Shown here: one piece after another, positions 39,635 to 40,021 of the stretch
Layout: each line of letters begins with the position of its first letter
Numbering within the stretch: position 1 is the stretch's first letter
From: a phage
Length of the DNA: 64,000 nt
Sequence record: PZ452583.1
Direction: 5' to 3' (one strand)
Translations under genes and position numbers: made by a program
Notes under the pieces: model-generated
The model's input: only the letters and a program-made list of their open reading frames with translations
The model's database searches: none
Told to the model about the DNA's origin: nothing

Positions 39635-39690
39635 GGTAATAGTATCACTACTAAAACCCCGTGTAAACAACTTTGTGAAATTATTTTAAA
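39635..39690. repeat. Promoter-plus-stem-loop direct repeat, copy A (47/56 identical to 39966-40021), downstream flank of the IPI-like gene
   Basis: Shares GGTAATAGTATCACTAC and GTGTAAACAACTTTGTGAAATTATTTTAAA with copy B; contains early promoter 39639..39668. Confidence 0.7.
39639..39668 (-). promoter_or_regulatory. T4-type early promoter (GTTTAC, 18 bp, TACTAT)
   Basis: Read on minus strand; -10 flanked by AGTAGT/ACTACT inverted repeat. Confidence 0.6.
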
Positions 39691-39938
39691 TCTTCTAATC
39701 GTTTCTTCATCTTAGAACCATTTTTAGCGATTTCTCCTGCGTCAGAGCATAATGCTAAAAGTGCTTTAACTTTAGTTTGGTCTCCTTTAAAAGACGAAGG
39801 ATCGACTGCAGCAGCAAGTTCTTTAATACGAGAGAAAAGACGCTCAGCTTCAGCTAAAGCCATTCCAAGCTTTACTTCCATACCATGAGAAGATTCAGTG
39901 ATAATAGTTTCTGTAGCAAACTCTTTATAAGTTTTCAT
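39681..39938 (-). CDS. Internal-protein-like capsid-packaged protein, 85 aa, at the T4 ipI position
   Basis: N-terminus MKTYKEFATE matches the IP capsid-targeting consensus; adjacent to 57B; flanked by promoter-containing direct repeats. Confidence 0.65.
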   Translation of the reverse strand: MKTYKEFATETIITESSHGMEVKLGMALAEAERLFSRIKELAAAVDPSSFKGDQTKVKALLALCSDAGEIAKNGSKMKKRLEDLK

Positions 39939-39965
39939 TTTATTTTTCCTAATTAATTTTGATGA

Positions 39966-40021
39966 GGTAATAGTATCACTACCTCATCAGTGTGTAAACA
40001 ACTTTGTGAAATTATTTTAAA
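39966..40021. repeat. Promoter-plus-stem-loop direct repeat, copy B, upstream flank of the IPI-like gene
   Basis: See copy A; contains early promoter 39970..39999 inside GATGAGGTA/TACCTCATC inverted repeat. Confidence 0.7.
39970..39999 (-). promoter_or_regulatory. T4-type early promoter (GTTTAC, 18 bp, TACTAT)
   Basis: Read on minus strand; -10 sits in the loop of a 9-bp inverted repeat. Confidence 0.6.

Follow-up and report, generated by a model that had tools for sequence, protein, structure and literature searches.

The ip5 locus and its two flanking repeats

The phage DNA analysed here is a stretch of 64,000 nucleotides (record PZ452583.1), hereafter the window, and the subject of this analysis is a small gene, ip5, that lies in it between 57B and tRNA.4, together with the two direct copies of a promoter-bearing element that bracket it (Table 1). 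Every gene of this neighbourhood lies on the minus strand. The window carries a Tequatrovirus (T4-like coliphage) ipI-type locus with one internal protein (IP) cassette, ip5, in the slot between 57B and tRNA.4 where T4 carries ipI. A sequence-only reading of this DNA had proposed an IP-type gene at the site where T4 has IPI, and both parts of that proposal are supported. The open reading frame (ORF) starts with MKTYKEFATETIITE..., the capsid-targeting leader MKT(F/Y)(K/Q)EF, which reads MKTYKEFATE here and is common to T4 IPI and to Ip5, Ip6, Ip7 and Ip9 (alignment by eye, six phages). The product matches PHROG 3499, 'internal head protein'. A 1.2-kb region around the gene shares 99% identity with phage PP01, and the name ip5 is already used for this gene in the annotations of PP01, T2, RB14, RB32 and RB15 (record Z35082). 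The coordinates and the leader given for the ORF were thus borne out, while its strand and the extension of the repeat into coding sequence had gone unstated. A Shine-Dalgarno AGGA precedes ip5 at 39950-39947.

Around this ORF, a repeat search run both locally and over the whole window reported a sole direct-repeat pair, the copies A and B of Table 1, which are 69 nt each, 331 nt apart and identical at 59 of 69 positions (86%). The existence of two flanking copies, already claimed from the sequence, is therefore confirmed. The 56-bp repeats proposed at 39635-39690 and 39966-40021 are present, but their identity is 49/56 by our count rather than the 47/56 given earlier, and they are part of the longer 69-nt repeat. 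The two copies share exact-identity patches of 32 nt and 17 nt. The 32-nt core, GTGTAAACAACTTTGTGAAATTATTTTAAATC, has only these two sites in the 64-kb window, even with 3 mismatches allowed, against 0 expected (100 shuffles). The repeat reaches into coding sequence, covering the final codons and the stop of 57B in copy B and those of ip5 in copy A. On the minus strand, 40012-40027 and 39681-39696 are identical at 15 of 16 nt (AGA[C/A]GATTTAAAATAA), and the encoded ends are DDLK* in 57B and EDLK* in Ip5. Since the diverged 57B of a Klebsiella Jiaodavirus likewise terminates in EDLK*, Ip5 seems to have acquired its C-terminus from the 3′ end of 57B.

In minus-strand order, copy B reads ...GCAGACGATTTAAAATAA TTTCACAAAGTT GTTTACA CACTGATGAGGTAGTGA TACTAT TACCTCATCAA AATTAATTAGGAAAAATAAA ATG, and it is near-identical to the 57B-proximal element in T4, T2, T6, PST, RB14, RB15 and RB32. 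Copy A is a chimera whose left half is of the type found downstream of ip5 and whose right half is of the type found upstream of tRNA.4. A promoter consensus scan found an early-type promoter, TTTACA-17-TGnTACTAT, in both copies, with a G before the TTTACA (GTTTAC) and an A/T-rich stretch upstream of the -35. As had been noticed from the sequence, each copy thus holds a complete early-type promoter whose -10 box sits inside an inverted repeat, and folding with DNA parameters agrees with RNA folding in this respect. The copy B hairpin (39960-39989) has a 13-bp stem with an energy of -17.4 kcal/mol as RNA (z -6.2, equalled by 0 of 200 shuffles), and that of copy A (39633-39660) has an interrupted stem at -12.9 kcal/mol (z -2.5). 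Both stems are A/T-rich (TGATGAGGTAGT.. in copy B, GGGGT..TAGTA in copy A), their centres are 3 nt apart and their arm sequences differ. Because the hairpins differ in register, a single consensus structure would mislead, and the hairpins were judged by z-score copy by copy. By this measure 27 of the 32 IP-locus elements in ten genomes fold at z < -2 (mean -4.0), with at least two registers and arm sequences. Rfam, searched in E-value mode over 39300-40300, matched no family. Neither intergenic element contains a TATAAATA that could serve as a late promoter for ip5, the nearest on the gene strand being at 41065-41072, inside gene 1.

In order to separate the element from the consensus that early promoters have in common, every GTTTAC-N17-18-TAnnnT site in the window was compared in register. 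The IP pair agrees at 56 of 69 positions when anchored on the -35, against a mean of 31.6 (sd 5.0, max 46) for 104 other early-promoter pairs, and its longest exact run is 32 nt, compared with at most 21 nt among the others. The top non-IP pair reaches 46/69 with an 18-nt run, and no other early promoter of the window exceeds 44/69 identity to the element. Some parts of it are widespread: TTTCACAAAGTTGTTTACA, CTATCAA near +1 and/or the TG-extended -10 recur at the promoters at 6944, 19435, 17996 and 34692, which are 61-66% identical to the element over 62-69 nt. The excess similarity of the IP pair is located in the coding 3′ end with its stop codon and in GTAGTGATACTATTACC. The sequence-only reading had named generic consensus as the explanation on which its claim could fail; a cassette-specific extension is found, with 56-59 of 69 positions identical in the IP pair and at most 46 in any other.

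Table 1. Genes and features of the ip5 locus in the window.
Feature	Position	Strand	Description
gene 1 (dNMP kinase)	41473-40709	-	
57A	40709-40467	-	
57B (Acb1, anti-CBASS phosphodiesterase)	40012..40467	-	Conserved upstream anchor of the locus; Pfam PF23474, E 3.3e-60; annotated 57B in PP01, T4 and RB32
Repeat copy B (57B>ip5 element)	39959..40027	-	57B 3′ end and stop, A/T-rich stretch, promoter, 13-bp hairpin
Copy B promoter	-35 TTTACA 39998-39993; TG and -10 TACTAT 39975-39970	-	17-nt spacer
ip5	39681..39938	-	85-aa internal head protein; PHROG 3499, E 3.7e-50, end to end
Repeat copy A (ip5>tRNA.4 element)	39628..39696	-	ip5 3′ end and stop, A/T-rich stretch, promoter, interrupted hairpin
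Copy A promoter	-35 TTTACA 39667-39662; TG and -10 TACTAT 39644-39639	-	
tRNA.4	39425..39613	-	Conserved downstream anchor; 62-aa predicted small membrane protein; PHROG 1692; annotated trna.4 in PP01 and T4
tRNA.3	39424-39014	-	

Cassette content and mosaic elements in related phages

We compared the 57B-tRNA.4 interval of eleven genomes besides the window. Between the two anchor genes slur04 has no IP gene, PP01 has ip5 like the window, and T4 has ipI. Two genes are found in RB14 (ip5, ipI), in T6 and PST (ip5, ip6) and in T2 (ip5, ip7). RB32 has ip5, ip9 and ip7, G4498 has ip9, ip7 and ip8, RB15 has ip5, ip9, ip7 and ip8, and the Klebsiella Jiaodavirus 15882-3-2 has an ip8-like gene. The number of IP genes therefore ranges from 0 to 4 across the eleven relatives, and in every case the number of elements equals that of the IP genes plus one. 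A motif scan of IMG/VR yielded 26 fragmentary loci, which were set aside in favour of the complete genomes. In vB_EcoM-101117BS1 (431-721 of the sequence compared) an in-frame stop splits ipI into ORFs of 32 and 58 aa next to an intact ip6; this split ipI is a decaying cassette.

When displayed in register, all elements prove to be mosaics, in which the sequence through the 5′ arm of the palindrome (left half) varies with the upstream gene and that from the 3′ arm via the leader to the start codon (right half) varies with the downstream gene. The switch points are found in both identity blocks, for example in the left 32-nt block in the 57B>ip9 element of G4498 and in the central -10 block in the ip5>ip7 element of T2. 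This spread of the switch points over both blocks fits homology-driven exchange and argues against a single fixed crossover site. Chimeric elements whose arms differ in origin lose the hairpin, as in the Ip9>Ip7 element of RB32 (z -0.8). In slur04 (LN881729; positions 660-800 of the sequence compared) a single chimeric element separates 57B from tRNA.4, and this empty site agrees at 120 of 125 positions with the B x A recombinant predicted from the two copies of the window. Given the 0 to 4 cassettes, the constant excess of one element and the mosaic halves, all at flanks that are 95-99% identical, turnover at the elements has been frequent on the timescale separating these phages. The sequence-only reading had called the gene a shuffled module and had suggested examining whether cassette content differs between relatives while the repeats are conserved; the variable content with the elements kept, the mosaic halves and the slur04 empty site agree with it on both counts.

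Exchange also appears to have crossed a genus boundary. In a pairwise alignment of G4498 with the Klebsiella phage (2300-3000 of the latter's compared sequence), ~80-90% of positions agree, as judged by eye, over the ip8 gene, its downstream element and the initial ~40 nt of tRNA.4, after which the identity falls abruptly; 57A, 57B, gene 1 and tRNA.4 taken in full have 56-69% identity. Since the high identity in ip8 and its element stops so sharply between such divergent flanks, the alignment indicates that the ip8 cassette was exchanged between the Tequatrovirus and Jiaodavirus lineages, with one crossover just inside tRNA.4.

Earlier descriptions and the role of the elements

The ip5 cassette arrangement has already been described (1994) and annotated, and is ordinary for this phage group. 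Repoila, Tetart, Bouet and Krisch (1994, EMBO J 13:4181) reportedly found that most IP ORFs have on either side a ~70-bp sequence in which a palindrome overlaps a T4 early promoter, and proposed that it mediates shuffling; ip5 is said to be among the IPs that they named. The RB15 record, which dates from 1994 and comes from the original study, contains ip5, ip9, ip7 and ip8, and its element copies align with those of the window. The locus between 57B and tRNA.4, the gene family and the placement on both sides of the IP ORF are the same here, the ~70 bp with a T4 early promoter corresponds to the 69 nt with TTTACA-17-TG-TACTAT, and an inverted repeat overlaps the promoter in both of our copies. 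The corresponding halves of the T4, T2, T6 and RB15 elements are near-identical to those of the window when compared in register. We see no difference of substance from the 1994 element, this genome being, like PP01, a single-cassette allele with ip5 only.

Later work has treated these elements alongside the promoter-early stem-loops (PeSLs) of RB49 and phi1. In Arbiol 2010 the IP-locus elements are credited to Repoila et al. and regarded as analogues, not homologues, of those PeSLs, with T4 early promoters, weaker A/T-rich stem-loops and a character that is 'not sigma70-like' (PMC2839356). Comeau 2014 extended the PeSL name to the T4/PST pair and to nt-1/KVP40, crediting the 1994 observation on the IP locus (PMC4122927), the GenBank record of RB32 (2006) describes a gene 'flanked by 43 bp direct repeat' that 'replaces ipI', and Petrov 2010 leaves the IP loci unmentioned. 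The PeSL layout, with the upstream stop in an A/T-rich region, the -35 and -10, a stem-loop often over the -10, the Shine-Dalgarno and the start (PMC2839356), is that of our elements, from upstream stop to start, and holds across RB49/phi1, PST/T4 and nt-1/KVP40. Both kinds flank small non-essential genes that vary among close relatives, and both have been proposed to mediate modular shuffling by recombination. However, a PeSL in the sense of Arbiol has the exact sigma-70 consensus promoter and a stable, typically polyG...polyC stem, whereas the promoter here is of the T4-early GTTTAC type (matching the sigma-70 hexamers at 9 of 12 positions, plus the TG) and the A/T-rich stems have no polyG or polyC. 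Terminator activity and mini-circles are features of the RB49/phi1 PeSLs, the IP elements being known here from sequence alone. The match to PeSL cassettes drawn in the sequence-only reading is thus correct for the architecture and for the 2014 usage of the name, but not for the stricter sense, under which the IP elements are analogues with neither the exact sigma-70 consensus nor the polyG/polyC stem.

A more distant likeness is to the attC-flanked cassettes of integrons, which are also arrays of small exchangeable adaptive genes at a fixed site, variable in number and order and bounded by imperfectly palindromic repeats. In contrast to integrons, there is no integrase or recombinase among the neighbouring ORFs here, each cassette has its own promoter, and the junctions are spread over identity blocks instead of falling at one site. 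Exchange of IP cassettes by general homologous recombination rather than by an integron-type process is the most likely interpretation.

As for the protein, Ip5 matched no Pfam family and had no match below E 0.5 among PDB sequences, and a single-sequence AlphaFold model of it is a two-helix hairpin (pLDDT 79.5). The cleavage preference of the T4 prohead protease is L/I-x-E, and for this reason Ip5 is likely to be cleaved at its I-T-E motif (residues 13-15). As a rule these internal proteins lose a propeptide of 10-19 residues once packaged (PMC9026906), and Ip5 appears to have both marks of the T-even injected proteins, the MKT(F/Y)(K/Q)EF leader of about 10 residues and an L/I-x-E site after a propeptide of that length. 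T4 IPI (IPI*), an inhibitor of GmrSD type IV restriction, shares with Ip5 the slot, the small size, the I-T-E motif and the leader (MKTFKEF versus MKTYKEF), but no similarity beyond the leader is evident by eye, and Ip5 is a predicted two-helix hairpin. Of the internal proteins only T4 Ip1, Ip2 and Ip3 have identified targets: each blocks a GmrSD-type restriction enzyme of its own and none cross-protects (PMC12373910), so the specificity of IPI cannot simply be transferred to Ip5. A literature search on Ip5, Ip7 and Ip9 returned only unrelated uses of the terms and nothing on the target or function of Ip5. By analogy with Ip1, Ip2 and Ip3, the most likely role of Ip5 is to counter a host defence, probably a type IV restriction enzyme of the GmrSD type. 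The cassette also adjoins a second counter-defence gene, since 57B is Acb1 (anti-CBASS).

Taken together, it is highly probable in our view that the repeats are IP-locus promoter/palindrome elements that serve both as expression units and as substrates of homologous recombination turning over IP cassettes, and that Ip5 is an injected protein, probably with an anti-restriction role. Each element would act as an immediate-early promoter unit for the gene downstream, its order being the stop of the upstream gene, an A/T-rich region, the T4-early -35, the extended -10, the palindrome over the -10, and then the Shine-Dalgarno and start; its promoter activity, and any part of the hairpin in termination or attenuation, are predictions. 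Because the same element precedes every gene of the locus, the exact-identity patches of 32 and 17 nt would be available for crossovers by the general homologous recombination of the phage, within one genome or between co-infecting relatives, and such crossovers could add, delete, replace or reorder IP cassettes. Ip5 itself would be made with an N-terminal capsid-targeting propeptide that the prohead protease removes once the protein is inside the prohead, and would be injected along with the DNA, upon which it may disarm a host defence as Ip1, Ip2 and Ip3 do. Both the recombination pathway and the function of Ip5 are what we infer from these comparisons. T-even IP loci are a store of injected, first-response inhibitors of host restriction, and the repeat elements would explain how phages reshuffle their IP repertoire and so alter host range. 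For the window itself the value is confirmatory, as it offers a clean single-cassette allele with ip5 in place of ipI. The recombination model should be easy to test, since natural empty-site and multi-cassette alleles exist in close relatives.

Several points weigh against this interpretation. Generic early-promoter consensus accounts for about 60% of the similarity over the 69 nt, and TTTCACAAAGTTGTTTACA is also found at 6944 and 19435. The -10 palindromes are not unique to the IP locus: five other early-type promoters of the window, on the minus strand with their -35 at 34355, 33966, 30473, 27387 and 22379, have a strong inverted repeat over the -10 (z -4.1 to -6.2), so that this genome has PeSL-like composites of promoter and hairpin outside the IP locus as well. 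A U-run or T-run is lacking after both hairpins, and an intrinsic-terminator scan found no terminator in the elements, which makes a classical intrinsic-terminator role for them doubtful. A Foldseek comparison of the Ip5 model with the PDB gave only generic helical hairpins, none at E <= 0.001, so that the fold comparison is uninformative. Whole loci could also be replaced between phages through the long homology in 57B and tRNA.4, in which case the elements would not be needed.

Among the other explanations, the one that fares best, though we consider it unlikely, is that the repeats are kept purely for expression, as a strong immediate-early promoter for each injected-protein gene with an RNA hairpin that attenuates or stabilises read-through, turnover being incidental and rare. 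The element upstream of tRNA.4 is indeed conserved at ~80-90% (by eye) between Tequatrovirus and the Klebsiella Jiaodavirus while its flanks are at 56-69%, hairpin stability is maintained by different sequences, and the RB49/phi1 PeSL stem-loops terminate transcription in reporter assays (PMC2839356). However, a role in expression is compatible with the combined role that we favour, the variation from 0 to 4 cassettes, the constant extra element and the mosaic halves between near-identical flanks show frequent turnover, and the sharp drop in identity inside tRNA.4 of the Klebsiella phage points to transfer and not to selection alone.

It is much more improbable that a phage factor recognises the -10 palindrome as a DNA structure, a cruciform or hairpin, and cuts or binds it, directing an integron-like movement of cassettes; endonuclease VII and Seg/Mob-type homing endonucleases would be candidates for such a factor. 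Such a pathway, if true, would account for the conservation of the element across Tequatrovirus and Jiaodavirus (~80-90%, by eye) against 56-69% in the surrounding genes. It would also agree with the retention of the palindrome in most copies through differing arm sequences and registers, with the several junctions that lie between the arms and leave mismatched arms in chimeras such as RB32 Ip9>Ip7 (z -0.8), and with homing endonuclease genes nearby, namely an HNH ORF at 37043-37675 and segB in relatives; Arbiol et al. speculated that a recombination protein binds the stem-loop, and one crossover that they found lay in the loop of a PeSL (PMC2839356). Yet the switch points are not at one site and occur also well away from the palindrome, within the left block of 32 nt (G4498 57B>ip9 and the slur04 empty site), as homology-driven exchange predicts, no recombinase gene was found in the locus among the neighbouring ORFs (Pfam, PHROG), and similar -10 palindromes lie at unrelated early promoters. 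Least credible of all is that the repeats are two independent early promoters alike through the long T4 early consensus, so that nothing in them would be specific to the cassette or serve shuffling. TTTCACAAAGTTGTTTACA, CTATCAA and the TG-extended -10 do recur among the four other promoters named above, at 61-66% identity, but the two IP copies agree at 86% of positions and have an exact run of 32 nt reaching past the stop codon into coding sequence (GATTTAAAATAA), no other promoter pair exceeds 46/69, the core occurs twice only in the window, and the same sequence flanks all IP genes in the 10 of 11 relatives that have any, with mosaic junctions and an empty-site allele besides.

Other internal-protein, repeat and mosaic features of the window

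A second internal-protein gene is found on the minus strand at 29519-29992. It encodes 157 aa starting with MKTYQEFITEAA, belongs to DUF7412 and PHROG 3155 ('internal virion protein'), and directly follows denV (30002-30418) after a 9-nt gap, without a flanking promoter/palindrome element.

Between tRNA.3 and tRNA.2, a 31-nt direct repeat (38536-38566 / 38991-39021, 87% identical) duplicates the 5′ end of tRNA.2 (ATGATTCTTTATGC[A/T]AAAGTA) and brackets a 455-bp insertion with a 126-aa ORF (38559-38939, minus strand, no Pfam match), which T4 does not have. This is a second repeat-flanked insertion, not a promoter-based one. Another direct repeat, of 36 nt (34822-34857 / 35377-35412), is 94% identical over two copies 555 nt apart, contains a G+C-rich hairpin (AAAAAGCCCCAACCTTTCGGCTAGGGC) and is possibly a repeated terminator. 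The HNH-type endonuclease ORF (minus strand, 210 aa, with a weak Pfam HNH match below cutoff) lies directly next to 10 clustered tRNA genes at 36090-37036. The region from 35.5 to 40.1 kb is a mosaic, for which the best database phage covers 91% at 93% identity, compared with 99% to PP01 for the ip5 region.

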